From a virus (taxonomy: Duplodnaviria; Heunggongvirae; Uroviricota; Caudoviricetes): DNA of 42,396 nucleotides. Each line of letters begins with the position of its first letter. Within the stretch, counting starts at the first letter, position 1. Below, one piece after another: positions 20,171 through 36,612 of this stretch. Location: IMG/VR virus record IMGVR_UViG_2861064056_000003; one strand, given 5' to 3'. The translations under genes were made by a program, and so were the position numbers. Below the pieces are notes generated by a model. The model saw only the letters and a program-made list of their open reading frames with translations, was not told where the DNA came from and did not search any database.

Positions 20171-20650
20171 CTACGCTTCTGAGATAGATTTCTCAGCATT
20201 CACCAATGGAAGTGATTGTGGAACATCCGTTTGACCTGCTGGCCAGCGGTAGCCTGTTACGCGGGAACGAGGAAAAGCTTTGATATTTACTTCATCTGCC
20301 TGGTTGCCCCCCAAAATCATTAAATCCCCGGCGGCATTTTTCCCGACAACAAAGCCGACGTGACCACCGCCAGACCGAGACAGAATAGCAATGCATCCAT
20401 AGGCGGGTTCCTTCAGTTCATTACCCCAATCGAGATAAGAATTCGCAGACTCAAAACGCGTTGAGCGAATACCCGCACGTTCCAGCATTGCCCCGGTGAA
20501 AGCAGCGCACCACGGTGTTTCGTCATCCTTAATGCCGCCGCGTTTGATATCTTTCCAGTACTGCACAATTTCTGCAGCATGTTGCTTCCCTTTCATTTCC
20601 CGAATGCCGAGGTTTTTTCGAGCCTCGATTAGCCATTTAGGATCCGTCAT
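20171..20650 (-). CDS. Putative endolysin, cysteine peptidase type (CHAP/NlpC-P60-like)
   Basis: Candidate catalytic Cys (ETPWCAAF) and His (GGHVGFVVG); located in the lysis cassette. Confidence 0.5.
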   Translation of the reverse strand: MTDPKWLIEARKNLGIREMKGKQHAAEIVQYWKDIKRGGIKDDETPWCAAFTGAMLERAGIRSTRFESANSYLDWGNELKEPAYGCIAILSRSGGGHVGFVVGKNAAGDLMILGGNQADEVNIKAFPRSRVTGYRWPAGQTDVPQSLPLVNAEKSISEA

Positions 20651-20922
20651 TACCTGTCTCCTGTTATTTTTGAAATATTCCCTCGTGCCCGCCAGACAGC
20701 AATACAGATGGTGAGGTTGAGAAAGAACTCTGCGGGATCAACCTGCGTATATTTCCCGTAAAAAATTCGTAGGGCTATCCACGCAGCAGACAGAATCGCG
20801 AGGTAAGCAGTTAGTGAGATGAAAAAACGATAGCGGCCTGTTTTTTGAAAAAACATCAACCGTAGTGCCAACATCAGACAAATAATTGCATTGGCATTGA
20901 TGAGGACAGAGTGCAGGGTCAT
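20650..20922 (-). CDS. Small membrane protein, holin/antiholin-like
   Basis: 90 aa with 2-3 hydrophobic segments, between the holin and endolysin genes. Confidence 0.4.
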   Translation of the reverse strand: MTLHSVLINANAIICLMLALRLMFFQKTGRYRFFISLTAYLAILSAAWIALRIFYGKYTQVDPAEFFLNLTICIAVWRARGNISKITGDR

Positions 20923-21305
20923 TATTTCATCCCCTTATCTGATTTCCATAAACGAGCTTGTGACATGATCCGCAACAGTGATGTAACGCTGATTACTGAT
21001 GCAACCAGTGCACCAATGGCGGGAGAGACTTTTACTGTTACGGGAGGGTTCAGGTGACTCAGCACCGCGTTCAGAATACCGGTAATGATGGCTGACGCTG
21101 TCTCAGCGCAATACACACCGCCAACAAACGAAATGAGTGCGAAAATAACCTGCTTCCAGAATCGATGCTGCCCGGACGACAACACATAGAGAGCTGCGCC
21201 TGCCAGCGCACAGATCATCACTGCAGGTGTTGCCTCAGGAAATAACGCAGCAAACGTCACCCCCGCCGAGCCAGCAGCAACGCCAGCGGTTAGAGGTTCA
21301 GACAT
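20922..21305 (-). CDS. Holin
   Basis: Membrane protein with several TM segments; start taken at internal ATG (MSEPLTAG) with RBS AGGAAA; first gene after the Q-like gene and tR'-like terminator. Confidence 0.5.
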   Translation of the reverse strand: MSEPLTAGVAAGSAGVTFAALFPEATPAVMICALAGAALYVLSSGQHRFWKQVIFALISFVGGVYCAETASAIITGILNAVLSHLNPPVTVKVSPAIGALVASVISVTSLLRIMSQARLWKSDKGMK

Positions 21306-21320
21306 GATTTTTCCTGATTC

Positions 21321-21349
21321 AGAAACGACAAAACCCCGCCGTGGCGAGG
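21321..21349 (-). terminator. tR'-like intrinsic terminator between the Q-like gene and holin
   Basis: Minus strand CCTCGC-CACG-GCGGGG hairpin followed by TTTTGTCGTTTC. Confidence 0.45.
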
Positions 21350-21417
21350 TTCTTAGAAATTTGGCAACATACCAAATTAGCGTCAAATATGGCCTATTTT
21401 GTTCGTTTTTGCAAGCA
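21350..21417 (-). promoter_or_regulatory. Probable late promoter / Q-utilisation region
   Basis: Between the Q-like stop and the terminator; TTGCAA and TATTTG hexamers on the minus strand with 19-bp spacing, so exact elements are uncertain. Confidence 0.3.
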
Positions 21418-24268: not shown

Positions 24269-24502
24269 ATGGGTACGTTAGGCAACCAGCCGTGCAGAAG
24301 TCGTTATGAGTTCGATGATTTTAATTTAGCCAATCGAGCTGCGGCTCTTACTAAGTTAGCAAAAGAAACTGGTGTATCGGTGGATACCTTAATCAAACTT
24401 GAAATTGCTATGCAACTGAATCGGCTCAACTCCATCCTTATCGAAAACGGTGACAAGATGGACGAGAATCTGGCAGGTATTGGCGAGATACTGCAGAAGT
24501 GA
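24269..24502 (+). CDS. Small protein with probable helix-turn-helix
   Basis: 77 aa; RBS GAGGAA; LAKETGVSVDTLIKLE resembles an HTH; followed by a hairpin. Confidence 0.4.
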   Translation: MGTLGNQPCRSRYEFDDFNLANRAAALTKLAKETGVSVDTLIKLEIAMQLNRLNSILIENGDKMDENLAGIGEILQK

Positions 24503-24508
24503 GAGTAG

Positions 24509-24524
24509 CCCCTCTTCTGAGGGG
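24509..24524 (+). terminator. Hairpin CCCCTC-TTCT-GAGGGG after the 77-aa gene
   Basis: Perfect 6-bp stem directly 3' of the stop codon; short U-tract. Confidence 0.35.
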
Positions 24525-24801
24525 TTGCACATTTAAAATATTAAGGGCGGTCTTCTTCACGTACACAGTCACCTGGTCGAATCGTTCACGCATACTGAGT
24601 ACAAAAAATCTCAACGATAAGATCAGGTTAGACCTGTATTTTCCAGAAACATATAGACGCCTAAAAAAACACTAAACTCATGATTATCATGTATGTTTTT
24701 ACTGGAAACATTGAACCATCCACAATACAGCGTAAAAAGCAAGCAATTCACAAGATTTTAAAGTGATTTATCTGGAAGACTTTACTACTAACAGTTAATA
24801 T

Positions 24802-24846
24802 CGTACCAGAAGTGCAGAATTTGCACTTTTACAGGAATGTGGTACG
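24802..24846. promoter_or_regulatory. Nested dyad symmetry upstream of the ImmA-like gene
   Basis: Outer CGTACCA...TGGTACG and inner GTGCA-gaatt-TGCAC inverted repeats 55-100 bp upstream of the ATG at 24901. Confidence 0.4.
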
Positions 24847-24900
24847 GAACATGCTGTCTATATTTCAACCAATAATCGTAATGCAGTAACTGGAGGAGCT

Positions 24901-25389
24901 ATGGCTACCAACCCAAGAGAGCACGCCCGGCGAGTGCTGGACACGTTCTGGTGCGGGCGTGGTTTCCCTGTTGATCCAGCGAAAATTGCTCACGACATGG
25001 GATTAGATGTTTTTATTACCGATCTTCCTGGGAAAGTTTCTGGCGCACTGATTAAACAAAAAGATCAAGATCCAGCGATCTTTCTAAACAGTGATGACAA
25101 CAAAGTTCGTCAACGTTTTTCATGTGGGCATGAGTTGGGGCATTACATCGCCCGGCAAGCATCGCATAGCGATGAATATGAGTACGTTGATTTACGTGGC
25201 GAAACCGCAAGCGCCGGAACGCATCCTGATGAAATTTTTGCAAACAAGTTCGCAGCAGAACTTCTGATGCCGGTAGATGAGGTCAGAAAACTGCACGCTG
25301 ACGGTCAACCAAGTTATATAATGGCGCATTATTTTGGCGTATCTGACGATGCGATGACTTATCGTTTAAAGAACTTGAGGTTGGGGTAA
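24901..25389 (+). CDS. ImmA/IrrE-family zinc metallopeptidase (M78-type)
   Basis: RQRFSCGHELGHY signature (HEXXH after RxRF); strong RBS GGAGGAG; 162 aa. Confidence 0.7.
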   Translation: MATNPREHARRVLDTFWCGRGFPVDPAKIAHDMGLDVFITDLPGKVSGALIKQKDQDPAIFLNSDDNKVRQRFSCGHELGHYIARQASHSDEYEYVDLRGETASAGTHPDEIFANKFAAELLMPVDEVRKLHADGQPSYIMAHYFGVSDDAMTYRLKNLRLG

Positions 25390-25398
25390 CGCTTTAAA

Positions 25399-25914
25399 AT
25401 GCCATCGGATGACGATTTTAACAGCCGTTTCAAACAGGAAGTAGCACGCAGACTGAAGGATTCCCTCAACCTACACCGTCAGTTAGCAGAAGAGGTTGAG
25501 CCGGAGGACGATGAAACTCCGGTTCAGTCTCCTGACGAAGCTTCACCTCAGCCAAAGGTTTCGCACGCCCCCAAAAAAACGGCTGTCCGTATTCGCGGAA
25601 TAGCCAGAAAAAGAGCTGCCGAAGCTCGCAAAATGGCTGTAGCTGCGTCTAGCAAAAGAATTCCAACTGCTACACCCTCTCAACAAGTCACCCGTACTGA
25701 GAGTAAAATCTTGACCGAGTTCACATCTGTGAAACAGGTGAATTCACTTGATACCGAGCATGAGCGCAAACAACTCAACAACAAAGATTTTGAAGCAGAA
25801 ATCGCTCTAAAAAAACGATACGGGAAATGGTTCCTGATTATCCTTGCTTTCCAACTTCTGATAATGAATGGTGTATTTATTGCCGACGGCGCAGGTAAGC
25901 TGGAATTTGGGTGA
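25399..25914 (+). CDS. Charged protein with C-terminal TM segment, 3' end interrupted by IS1
   Basis: Start 10 nt after the ImmA-like stop; stop codon supplied by the IS1 end; frame continues in 26686..26780 once IS1 and one TSD copy are removed. Confidence 0.5.
   Translation: MPSDDDFNSRFKQEVARRLKDSLNLHRQLAEEVEPEDDETPVQSPDEASPQPKVSHAPKKTAVRIRGIARKRAAEARKMAVAASSKRIPTATPSQQVTRTESKILTEFTSVKQVNSLDTEHERKQLNNKDFEAEIALKKRYGKWFLIILAFQLLIMNGVFIADGAGKLEFG
25902..25909. repeat. Target-site duplication GGAATTTG, left copy
   Basis: Identical 8-mer immediately flanks both IS1 ends. Confidence 0.75.
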
Positions 25915-25964
25915 TGCTGCCAACTTACTGATTTAGTGTATGATGGTGTTTTTGAGGTGCTCCA

Positions 25965-26240
25965 GTGGCTTCTGTTTCTATCAGCTGTCCCTCCTGTTCA
26001 GCTACTGACGGGGTGGTGCGTAACGGCAAAAGCACCGCCGGACATCAGCGCTATCTCTGCTCTCACTGCCGTAAAACATGGCAACTGCAGTTCACTTACA
26101 CCGCTTCTCAACCCGGTACGCACCAGAAAATCATTGATATGGCCATGAATGGCGTTGGATGCCGGGCAACCGCCCGCATTATGGGCGTTGGCCTCAACAC
26201 GATTTTACGTCACTTAAAAAACTCAGGCCGCAGTCGGTAA
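25965..26240 (+). CDS. insA: IS1 InsA
   Basis: 91 aa [42 protein letters not shown]..., the IS1 InsA sequence. Confidence 0.9.
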
Positions 26241-26662
26241 CCTCGCGCATACAGCCGGGCAGTGATGTGATTGTCTGCGCTGAAATGGACGAACAGTGGG
26301 GCTACGTCGGTGCTAAATCACGTCAGCGCTGGCTGTTTTACGCGTATGACAGGATACGGAGGACGGTTGTGGCGCACGTCTTCGGTGAACGCACTCTGGC
26401 CACACTGGAGCGTCTTCTGAGCCTGCTGTCGGCCTTTGAGGTCGTGGTATGGATGACGGATGGCTGGCCGCTGTATGAATCCCGCCTGAAGGGAAAGCTG
26501 CACGTAATCAGCAAGCGTTACACTCAGCGAATTGAGCGGCATAACCTGAATCTGAGACAACATCTGGCAAGGCTGGGACGGAAGTCACTGTCGTTCTCAA
26601 AATCGGTGGAGCTGCATGACAAGGTCATCGGGCATTATCTGAACATAAAACACTATCAGTAA
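26159..26662 (+). CDS. insB: IS1 InsB (made as InsAB' by frameshift)
   Basis: 167 aa ORF with the IS1 InsB sequence (..[28 protein letters not shown]..). Confidence 0.85.
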
Positions 26663-26677
26663 GTTGGAGTCATTACC

Positions 26678-26685
26678 GGAATTTG
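26678..26685. repeat. Target-site duplication GGAATTTG, right copy
   Basis: Matches 25902..25909. Confidence 0.75.
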
Positions 26686-26708
26686 AGGATTTAACACTAC
26701 AGTTGTAC

Positions 26709-26780
26709 ATGGGCGGTACTTTGACAGAGGTATTCGGCCTCGTGCTGGTCGTGACAAAATACCTTTTTAAACGCAAGTAA
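26709..26780 (+). repeat. Copy 1 of a ~75-bp direct repeat encoding MGGTLTEVFGLVLVVTKYLFKRK
   Basis: ~92% identical to 30132..30203; here in frame with the IS1-interrupted gene 25399.. Confidence 0.6.
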
Positions 26781-27242: not shown

Positions 27243-27941
27243 TTATATTTTTCCATATTTTTTTCCGTCAAATCGAATCATGCCAGGATCAAGAAAATTA
27301 ATTAAATCGATTAACGCGTGCTGTATTCTGATTAGCCTTTCTTTATAAATTCCGATATCTCTTGTCATATTTATCACTTCATTGTTTAAATCTAAAAAAA
27401 ATGGCTCATTGATAAAGCAATTTTCCTTTGTGAAACTGCCGTAACCTATGCAATCAAATCCAGTATCTGTTGATATCAGCATCTTTTCTGCAATAGCTCT
27501 CTGCTCTCCTATGAAAAACATAAAATACTGACCAAAGACGTCTGTTTGGATTAATGAGTTAATATTGTTCTGTAATCTAATAAACTCCCTCATTTTTTTA
27601 TTTTTTTCTAGGCTAAGGTATTGAATGTCTATGCGGGCAGCTTCTGTCCATGCAAAAAACTGGGAAAAAAGAAAAACAGTATTGTTGATAACATAATCTT
27701 GTTGGCGCTTATTCCCATTATGATAAAACTCTTCAATGAACCCCAATTCTAATATATTATAAATACGGCTTTGTAAGTCTGAAGCTGAGCGAATTAACGG
27801 TTCAATATAGTACTGATGTTTTCTCCTTACATCCAGTGATTCATTGAGCTTGTTTATTCTATTCTGATTATAAGTAGATATAGCAATAGAGATTATAGCT
27901 ATTGCACCACTAATAAAGCTTGAAATTAATGCCGTACCCAT
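27243..27941 (-). CDS. Hypothetical membrane-anchored protein (232 aa), low GC, no recognised family
   Basis: N-terminal hydrophobic segment (ALISSFISGAIAIISIAI); RBS AAGGA; AT-rich codon usage unlike the rest of the prophage. Confidence 0.55.
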   Translation of the reverse strand: MGTALISSFISGAIAIISIAISTYNQNRINKLNESLDVRRKHQYYIEPLIRSASDLQSRIYNILELGFIEEFYHNGNKRQQDYVINNTVFLFSQFFAWTEAARIDIQYLSLEKNKKMREFIRLQNNINSLIQTDVFGQYFMFFIGEQRAIAEKMLISTDTGFDCIGYGSFTKENCFINEPFFLDLNNEVINMTRDIGIYKERLIRIQHALIDLINFLDPGMIRFDGKKYGKI

Positions 27942-30101: not shown

Positions 30102-30131
30102 AGTCATCAAGTGCATATGTAACTGTTTTAT

Positions 30132-30203
30132 ATGGGCGGTACTTTGACAGAGGTATTCGGTCTCGTGCTGGTCGTGGTCAAATACCTTTTTAAGCGCAAA
30201 TAG
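30132..30203 (+). repeat. Copy 2 of the ~75-bp direct repeat; free-standing 23-codon ORF MGGTLTEVFGLVLVVVKYLFKRK
   Basis: ~92% identical to 26709..26780; no upstream RBS. Confidence 0.6.
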
Positions 30204-36198: not shown

Positions 36199-36612
36199 AT
36201 GAACACAAAAACGAAAAACATGGCTTTTGCTAGCCGACTACAACGGATTCTAAAAGACTTAGGCTGGTCTCAATCTGAGTTAGCTCGCCATATTGGGGTT
36301 ACGGCTCAATCAGTTCAGGCATGGTGTAATGGGGTAACTCCAAGAAAAGATAAATTAGACAAGCTAGCAAAAGTGACCGGATACCCTGTTCATTTTTTCT
36401 TCATGAATGAAGGGGAATATTTGGATGAATCCACACTACACCCGGGTAATTACAATCAAGAACTAACCCCGCAAGAACAGGCTCTACTGCAACTATTCAG
36501 AGGACTGCCTGAGAGCGAAAAAAATAAATTAATCAATGAGCTAAAAGAAAAAAGAGAGCACTTCGATCTACTGCTAAAAGAACTACTTGAAGCCAAAAAC
36601 CAGACAAAATAG
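36199..36612 (+). CDS. DicA-like HTH repressor without a peptidase domain
   Basis: XRE-type HTH (QSELARHIGVTAQSVQAW) plus C-terminal LTPQEQALLQLFRGLPESEKNKLINELKEKREHFDLLLKELLEAKNQTK resembling the recalled E. coli DicA C-terminus; no SD before the ATG. Confidence 0.7.
   Translation: MNTKTKNMAFASRLQRILKDLGWSQSELARHIGVTAQSVQAWCNGVTPRKDKLDKLAKVTGYPVHFFFMNEGEYLDESTLHPGNYNQELTPQEQALLQLFRGLPESEKNKLINELKEKREHFDLLLKELLEAKNQTK

Follow-up and report, generated by a model that had tools for sequence, protein, structure and literature searches.

RosmerTA modules are two-gene units of mobile DNA in which an ImmA-domain zinc peptidase serves as the antitoxin of a toxin of no known domain, and they show defence or toxin–antitoxin (TA) behaviour. 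In the canonical representatives (Millman et al., 2022; the clpP-dependent module of E. coli E101 described by Rousset et al.; spr1629/spr1630 of S. pneumoniae) the antitoxin RmrA is 360–400 amino acids (aa) long and carries a fused N-terminal helix–turn–helix (HTH) domain of the XRE type, and the toxin gene is often the first of the two. The pair considered here lies at positions 24901–26780 of IMG/VR record IMGVR_UViG_2861064056_000003, a lambdoid prophage of E. coli by match, whose whole stretch of 42,396 nucleotides (nt) is referred to as the window. It comprises a gene for a peptidase of the ImmA/IrrE (M78) type and, directly downstream, a gene for a small membrane protein (gene 2) that is interrupted by IS1. 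Although its peptidase is short and lacks the fused HTH domain of canonical RmrA, the pair is very likely a RosmerTA-type two-gene TA/anti-phage module of the RmrA_D25/RmrT_D5 subtype.

A tested member of this subtype is the RosmerTA pair of Gordonia phage Kita (Ernits et al., 2023; PMC10440598), composed of RmrA_D25 (Peptidase_M78; gp32, YP_009301393.1) and RmrT_D5 (gp33, YP_009301394.1), which has a C-terminal transmembrane (TM) region; both accessions were confirmed in the supplement of that paper. RmrT_D5 stops growth immediately, abolishes macromolecular synthesis and rapidly depolarizes and permeabilizes the membrane, and E. coli carrying the pair is protected from the phages Bas54 and Bas59 (PMC10440598). 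Membrane depolarization by a RosmerTA toxin is also reported in a transposon-sequencing paper (PMC13566846), which is among the sources for the finding that clpP or clpX becomes essential in some strains because of other Rosmer-type toxins, and defence by RosmerTA has been reported by three independent studies, including PMC10440598.

The M78 catalytic fold and its HExxH...E zinc site are shared with ImmA/ImmR of ICEBs1, IrrE/DdrO of Deinococcus and CapP/CapH, which regulate cyclic-oligonucleotide-based anti-phage signalling systems (CBASS). Characterized M78 peptidases act on a protein encoded beside them; in these three systems the partner is an XRE repressor, whereas the neighbour in the window encodes a membrane protein. 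PD-lambda-2 (Vassallo et al., 2022) likewise provides E. coli with defence from a mobile element through a TA-like operon with an ImmA/IrrE domain, but it consists of three genes, with a HigB-like toxin and a toxic Xre–peptidase fusion, and has no membrane partner; no PD-lambda-2 model was present among the PADLOC families listed for the window peptidase.

Comparison of the pair with RosmerTA of phage Kita

The first gene (24901..25389, + strand) encodes a 162-aa RmrA-like stand-alone zinc metallopeptidase with RQRFSCGHELGH at residues 70–81, the signature by which it had been recognized in the original prediction. It matched Pfam PF06114 (Peptidase_M78) with E=7.7e-18 and belongs to phrog_87, described as 'metallo-protease'. 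In PADLOC it matched capP (2.4e-25) and many RmrA models (best 5.8e-12); the capP match spanned only positions 3–151 of the 242-position profile, and the score against NCBIfam spr1629 was far under the cut-off (25 vs 335 bits). The predicted zinc ligands H77, H81 and E111 and the catalytic residue E78 align with H96, H100, E129 and E97 of CapP, and all four were invariant in nine distant and 32 closer members of the clade. By sequence, the HExxH motif and downstream Glu expected of an M78 zinc metallopeptidase are in place and the catalytic site is intact.

The AlphaFold (AF2) model of the peptidase, with a predicted local distance difference test score (pLDDT) of 90, comprised the catalytic domain and a small helical linker subdomain with neither an HTH nor a GAF domain, and together with the Pfam scan it bears out the view of a stand-alone ImmA-type enzyme. 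The best PDB neighbours of the model were CapP (7t5t), IrrE/PprI and the COG2856-like domain of a Mycobacterium tuberculosis regulator, and its template modelling score normalized to CapP was 0.40. The three-domain architecture of CapP and IrrE (PprI), with a C-terminal GAF domain, was not found in the 162-aa protein, which in the absence of GAF also has no inter-domain groove for single-stranded DNA; the cysteine-switch residue of CapP, C113, aligns with a Tyr. The 120 close peptidase homologues listed were 110–198 aa long with at most a single M78 domain each, and no natural peptidase–toxin fusion (Rosetta-stone evidence) was found among them. A cysteine two residues before HExxH (Cys75, 25123–25125) was invariant in the 32 close clade members; this position is Ile in the Gallibacterium homologue and has no counterpart in CapP or IrrE. 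Cys75 might have a redox or metal role.

Gene 2 encodes the RmrT_D5-like membrane toxin and begins at position 25399, 9 nt past the peptidase stop codon and in the same frame. The two genes, initially described as translationally coupled, are separated by this 9 nt gap and do not overlap. The 5' part of gene 2 (codons 1–170, 25399..25909, + strand) specifies an N-terminal helix that a long charged, disordered linker connects to a juxtamembrane helix and the first TM helix (TM1), and the 3' part (codons 171–201 and the stop codon, 26686..26780, + strand) encodes a periplasmic turn and the second TM helix (TM2; LTLQLYMGGTLTEVFGLVLVVTKYLFKRK), which is strongly conserved. The charged protein with C-terminal hydrophobic segments that had been noticed in the window thus has two C-terminal membrane helices. 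The AF2 model of the protein (pLDDT 62) placed helices at residues 4–32, 119–164 and 172–199, with residues 33–118 disordered. The charge distribution suggests a small inner-membrane protein with both the N- and the C-terminus in the cytoplasm.

The gene-2 family corresponds to phrog_5346 (E=5e-141, function unassigned) and had no Pfam or NCBIfam match. Searching 1.84 billion cluster representatives with a gene-2 profile yielded 722 relatives at E≤1e-3, each of them a cluster at 50 % identity; the best 150 of the 722 were small, mostly 100–180 aa. The conserved core of the family, D..D..LKk.YA..F..IL..QL..MN.VF...G.G.L......L.LY.GGTL.EVFG.VLVIT.YLF, consists of the juxtamembrane helix and the pair of membrane helices, which present a polar face (Q152, N157, T182, E185). 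In the proteins from Enterobacterales the central linker varied from ~0 to ~100 residues, and the C-terminal 85 residues were highly conserved. No literature was found on the two RefSeq protein accessions of the pair.

Gene 2 gave no match when 50,697 isolated phage genomes were searched by tblastn, and it was linked to Kita only via the corresponding search with the peptidase, followed by profile comparison. In the peptidase search, Kita-cluster Gordonia phages ranked directly after an E. coli phage record and were the best non-E. coli phage matches. Kita gp32 was 43 % identical to the window peptidase over 157 aa (E=1e-41); it is likewise encoded first and devoid of an HTH domain, and its gene overlaps that of gp33 by 4 nt. 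Comparison of the gene-2 family profile with Kita gp33 by hhalign gave a probability of 96.6 % (E=6.5e-10) over 79 columns, which cover the juxtamembrane helix and both TM helices; in the TM2 region, TVVEVLGLAYIITSDLF of Kita RmrT_D5 was aligned to TLTEVFGLVLVVTKYLF. Membrane-protein controls gave 1.0 % (phage 21 holin), 1.1 % (a second class of protein encoded downstream of peptidase relatives, described below) and 0.15 % (the 232-aa neighbour of the pair in the window). The D25/D5 subtype assignment is based on the 43 % identity of the peptidase and on the hhalign probability of 96.6 % as against ~1 % or less for the controls.

Both components expected of RosmerTA are therefore present: an ImmA/IrrE-domain antitoxin (PF06114; PADLOC RmrA; 43 % identity to RmrA_D25) and an adjacent, co-oriented toxin gene (9 nt gap; hhalign 96.6 % to RmrT_D5). 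A fused N-terminal XRE HTH domain, which is frequent in RosmerTA and not universal, is missing; as D25 proteins carry an HTH only 'often' (PMC10440598) and Kita RmrA_D25 is itself without one, the domain is not a defining feature. The Kita and window pairs are alike in that the gene of an HTH-less stand-alone M78 peptidase precedes that of a small protein ending in a two-helix hairpin, and in that both are tightly coupled and phage-borne. They differ in the length of the toxin (201 aa in E. coli, 119 aa in Kita), the E. coli protein being extended by a conserved N-terminal helix and a disordered linker that varies, and in their setting, Kita being an actinophage whereas the window pair is carried by a lambdoid enterobacterial prophage with its toxin gene broken by IS1. 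The novelty implied in the original prediction was not upheld, since this architecture is already filed as RosmerTA under the NetFlax nodes D25 and D5 (PMC10440598).

Conservation and genomic settings of the pair

A search seeded with gene 2 identified nine loci in other species (Escherichia whittamii, Leclercia, Buttiauxella, Gallibacterium, Thalassotalea, Microbulbifer, a Desulfuromonas metagenome-assembled genome and two other such genomes), and a peptidase homologue (43–99 % identity) was encoded directly upstream in all nine. A search seeded with the peptidase identified 80 viral contigs which, together with the genome loci, provided 75 distinct downstream ORFs. At least one TM helix, and mostly two, was predicted in 69 of these 75, and the gap between the peptidase gene and the downstream ORF was ≤15 nt or an overlap in 69 of the 75 distinct pairs, −4 being the commonest value. 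The first-pass gene-2 hidden Markov model (HMM) matched 35 of the 75 downstream ORFs, and only these were counted as members of the gene-2 family; an iterated HMM reached 46, although some of the members added later are probably due to drift from one membrane protein to another. The two proteins have diverged together, their pairwise distances being strongly correlated (Mantel r=0.86), a value reached by none of 2000 permutations. The pair is a real conserved unit, co-inherited as an autonomous mobile cassette. The operon of peptidase and membrane protein proposed from the window is thus conserved, and of the two outcomes named at the outset as fatal to the proposal, the pair never co-occurring elsewhere and the peptidase acting on the prophage repressor with gene 2 unrelated, neither was borne out: all nine loci were paired, HTH_3 was rare among upstream neighbours, and the pair also occurred outside prophages.

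When 67 upstream and 121 downstream neighbours were surveyed with Pfam, they proved heterogeneous and no third conserved partner was found; integrases were the commonest family (five upstream and five downstream). The pair occurred in the cargo slot of lambdoid prophages, at the integrase end of a Rac-like prophage, in a Mu-like prophage and in the cargo of a Tn7-like element, and also in small chromosomal islets beside an MmeI-type restriction–modification gene and putative TA pairs (named by eye). In the window, the pair is a moron that occupies the early-region cargo slot; the lambdoid prophage is of a type typical of E. coli sequence type 131 (ST131).

More distant peptidase relatives (32–42 % identity) in viral contigs had other small membrane proteins downstream, likewise with two helices and ending in an amphipathic tail, for example L060:4462-4878 and L073:4468-4902. 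The L060 protein was not detectably homologous to gene 2 (the 1.1 % control above), which suggests partner swapping with the 'peptidase + small membrane protein' design kept. Close to the right end of the P2-like phage genome NC_070905.1 is the gene of a peptidase relative (2489-2974, 37 % identity); the 159-aa gene that comes next (3186-3665, function unassigned) is separated from it by 211 nt, an unusually long gap. A second E. coli variant of the pair (contig positions 6001-6968), with a peptidase 75 % identical to that of the window and a 155-aa toxin, is flanked on one side by a Peptidase_M90 gene and on the other by the integrase of a Rac-like prophage (RecE, DicB region); another integrase adjoins it in some strains.

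A spacer of a type I-E clustered regularly interspaced short palindromic repeats (CRISPR) array in E. coli 23CRST031 (NZ_AP045800.1, ~570363-570394) matched positions 26731-26762 (+ strand) of the TM2-coding sequence at 32 of 32 bases, indicating that a phage with gene 2 was sampled by CRISPR adaptation. The next three window bases after 26762 are CTT, so that on the complementary strand the protospacer is immediately preceded by AAG, the canonical type I-E protospacer adjacent motif.

Proposed function and competing explanations

By homology with Kita RmrT, the two-helix hairpin of the gene-2 protein would form pores that depolarize and permeabilize the membrane. In an uninfected lysogen the co-translated peptidase, as RmrA antitoxin or regulator, would keep the toxin harmless, either binding or cutting its cytoplasmic juxtamembrane or tether region. 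The juxtamembrane helix is proposed as the target because it is the only cytoplasmic part conserved across the family, because M78 peptidases act on neighbour-encoded proteins and because there is no HTH protein to cleave. An infecting phage would disturb this control, the freed toxin would collapse the membrane potential and the infection would abort, so that the module would act as an abortive-infection device supplied by the prophage to its lysogen. Host proteases may take part in the control, given that other Rosmer toxins make clpP or clpX essential. The conditional toxin or abortive-infection module originally suggested is, by homology to the tested Kita pair, the best reading of the locus.

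The reverse polarity, in which the peptidase would be a sensor that cuts the disordered tether on a phage cue, thereby freeing the autoinhibitory N-terminal helix and opening the two-helix pore, is unlikely, since full-length RmrT_D5 alone is already toxic. The enterobacterial N-terminal extension, which Kita lacks, would in that case be an added gate, and the protease-gated pore would follow the logic of protease-activated gasdermins.

Several points weigh against assigning the pair to RosmerTA and giving it this function. The E. coli protein shares only ~25 % identity with the hairpin of Kita RmrT, and its extra N-terminal helix and 85-residue disordered linker are both missing from the Kita protein. 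When gene 2 was compared with the PADLOC 2023 library at E≤0.1, a weak match to JetC was the sole result and no RmrT model was obtained. Data on toxicity and defence come only from the Kita homologues, and these properties are assigned to the E. coli copy by homology. In Kita itself, RmrA_D25 neutralizes RmrT_D5 only partly, defence is narrow, being directed against two phages of the BASEL collection, and AlphaFold failed to model the RmrA/RmrT complex (PMC10440598).

The narrow defence of the Kita pair would also fit pure addiction or stabilization, in which a TA cassette keeps the prophage or cargo by post-segregational killing and has no anti-phage role. The TA-like layout with overlapping genes, the mobility of the pair and its frequent position near other putative TA pairs would agree with such a role, and the essentiality of clpP or clpX brought about by Rosmer-type toxins is typical addiction behaviour. 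Defence by RosmerTA has, however, been reported in three independent studies, and the pair occupies cargo positions (phages, a Tn7-like element, a P2-like phage) of the kind in which defence genes often gather. Addiction without defence is on this evidence improbable; the two roles are not mutually exclusive, and addiction is compatible with the RosmerTA assignment.

A switch of the ImmA/ImmR type, in which the peptidase would cleave the HTH repressor of the prophage in trans and the membrane protein would be a passenger or a gating sensor, is very unlikely. The repressor gene maps at ~36220-36612, ~11 kb from the peptidase gene as had been noted initially, and its product resembles ImmR, DdrO and CapH in being a short HTH protein (130 aa) for which no S24 autocleavage domain is annotated. 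The peptidase is ImmA-sized with an intact active site, and all characterized stand-alone M78 peptidases (ImmA, IrrE and CapP) cleave XRE repressors. The adjacent cognate XRE repressor of the ImmA/ImmR, IrrE/DdrO and CapP/CapH systems is nevertheless absent; as predicted, no HTH was found fused to the peptidase or, by Pfam scan, in the flanking ORFs of the window. The constant companion of the peptidase gene is gene 2, not an HTH gene (HTH_3 in two of the 67 upstream neighbours; downstream neighbours heterogeneous), and the pair also occurs outside prophages, in Tn7-like cargo and small chromosomal islets with no adjacent prophage repressor. The Kita homologue, moreover, acts as antitoxin to its membrane partner (PMC10440598). 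An alternative route of induction may be offered by an ORF6N-domain protein encoded by the window prophage, which is a candidate antirepressor. ORF6N domains occur in phage antirepressors.

Control of lysis timing, with the two-helix protein as a holin or antiholin-like protein whose cytoplasmic tail is trimmed by the peptidase to time host lysis, is extremely improbable: the topology with both termini inside resembles that of class II holins, the pair of the Mu-like Desulfuromonas prophage has a Mor-like gene (named by eye) on one side and an amidase endolysin gene on the other, and three downstream proteins had weak Phage_holin_3_6 matches, but gene 2 has neither the family similarity (1.0 % by hhalign between its profile and the phage 21 holin; no Pfam holin match) nor the lysis-cassette position of a class II holin, endolysin neighbours are rare (Amidase_3 in one of 121 downstream; ~2 of 67 upstream), the lysis cassette of the window prophage (20171-21386, − strand) is separate, ~3.5 kb away on the opposite strand with two holin genes of its own, and the pair also occurs outside phages.

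If the pair is a RosmerTA module, several hundred unnamed small membrane proteins (722 clusters, with no Pfam entry) are now tied to a toxin of tested activity. As the PADLOC 2023 library gave no RmrT model for gene 2, standard tools would probably not call the system, and a likely defence/TA module has probably been overlooked by routine defence-system annotation. The native E. coli copy and its natural TM2-less allele would provide a convenient system for studying how an HTH-less peptidase restrains a pore-former and which phage signal releases it.

IS1 insertion and sequences flanking the pair

The IS1 copy (25910..26677, + strand) is exactly 768 bp long, with insA/insB on the + strand and the usual terminal inverted repeats, and is annotated in the RefSeq record of strain AR_451 as an IS1 family transposase. 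It is inserted in codon 171 of gene 2 and flanked by an 8-bp target-site duplication, GGAATTTG (left 25902..25909, right 26678..26685). The resulting ORF (25399-25914) stops inside IS1, and its product comprises residues 1–170 and one Gly, with TM2 lost. Deletion of 25910..26685, the reconstruction recommended with the original prediction, yielded a 201-aa ORF ending at 26780 that was 100 % identical to the intact protein WP_001138663.1 of E. coli SA186. As TM2 is the most conserved part of the protein, the toxin has most probably been inactivated by IS1, leaving the peptidase and a one-helix stub in the window.

Of 5,426 complete E. coli genomes searched, 431 contained the full-length pair and one, AR_451 (NZ_CP030337.1), contained the IS1 junction; the exact arrangement of the window including IS1 was found only in this strain, which was also the sole split copy in an even sample of 56 full-length matches. 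The insertion is a recent, private event in AR_451. With one split genome against 431 full-length pairs, there is no support for recurrent selection against the toxin, which had been offered as a reason for the insertion. A second genome that seemed to have the same junction was rejected, since IS1 lies there downstream of an intact gene 2. Named records among the 431 genomes were mostly of pandemic ST131, for example JJ1886 and several O25b:H4-ST131 strains.

The nested perfect inverted repeats reported upstream of the peptidase gene are real (24802..24846), with outer arms CGTACCA/TGGTACG at 24802-08/24840-46 and inner arms AAGTGCA/TGCACTT at 24810-16/24822-28, and end 55 nt before the peptidase start. 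When the 211-nt stretch with the repeats was shuffled, two perfect 7-mers were nested in 0.9 % of the shuffled sequences; in the real window this was so in eight of 422 overlapping tiles. The repeats were not present upstream of the Leclercia and Buttiauxella orthologues, where the upstream regions are unrelated. A regulatory role is thus not supported by conservation; the repeats might be an operator or RNA hairpin.

Further upstream, a 77-aa ORF (24269-24502; phrog_5550, function unassigned) is followed just 3' by a GC-rich hairpin, GCCCCTC-TTCT-GAGGGGT (~24508-24525), and the two (24269-24527) look like a separate small transcription unit. The ORF was considered as a hidden cognate HTH and rejected, as it had no Pfam, NCBIfam or PDB support and was missing from all other loci of the pair.

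Downstream of the pair, a second toxin gene of this family has left an 81-nt 3'-terminal remnant (30122..30202, + strand), which is 89 % identical to 26699-26779 and encodes 25 aa with 92 % identity; this remnant was also found alone in other E. coli genomes. The two 81-nt direct repeats bracket a 3.3-kb variable segment with the gene of a 232-aa membrane protein (− strand) and an LprI-family gene (+ strand), and look like a recombination scar from cassette exchange. The 232-aa protein (27243-27941, − strand; phrog_5606) has an N-terminal membrane helix and a weak PADLOC match to RTasTM of DRT systems (E=1.8e-5). In strain Z0117EC0036 its gene is replaced in the same slot by a GIY-YIG nuclease gene with IS1 beside it, and the slot downstream of the pair looks like a variable cargo or defence site.

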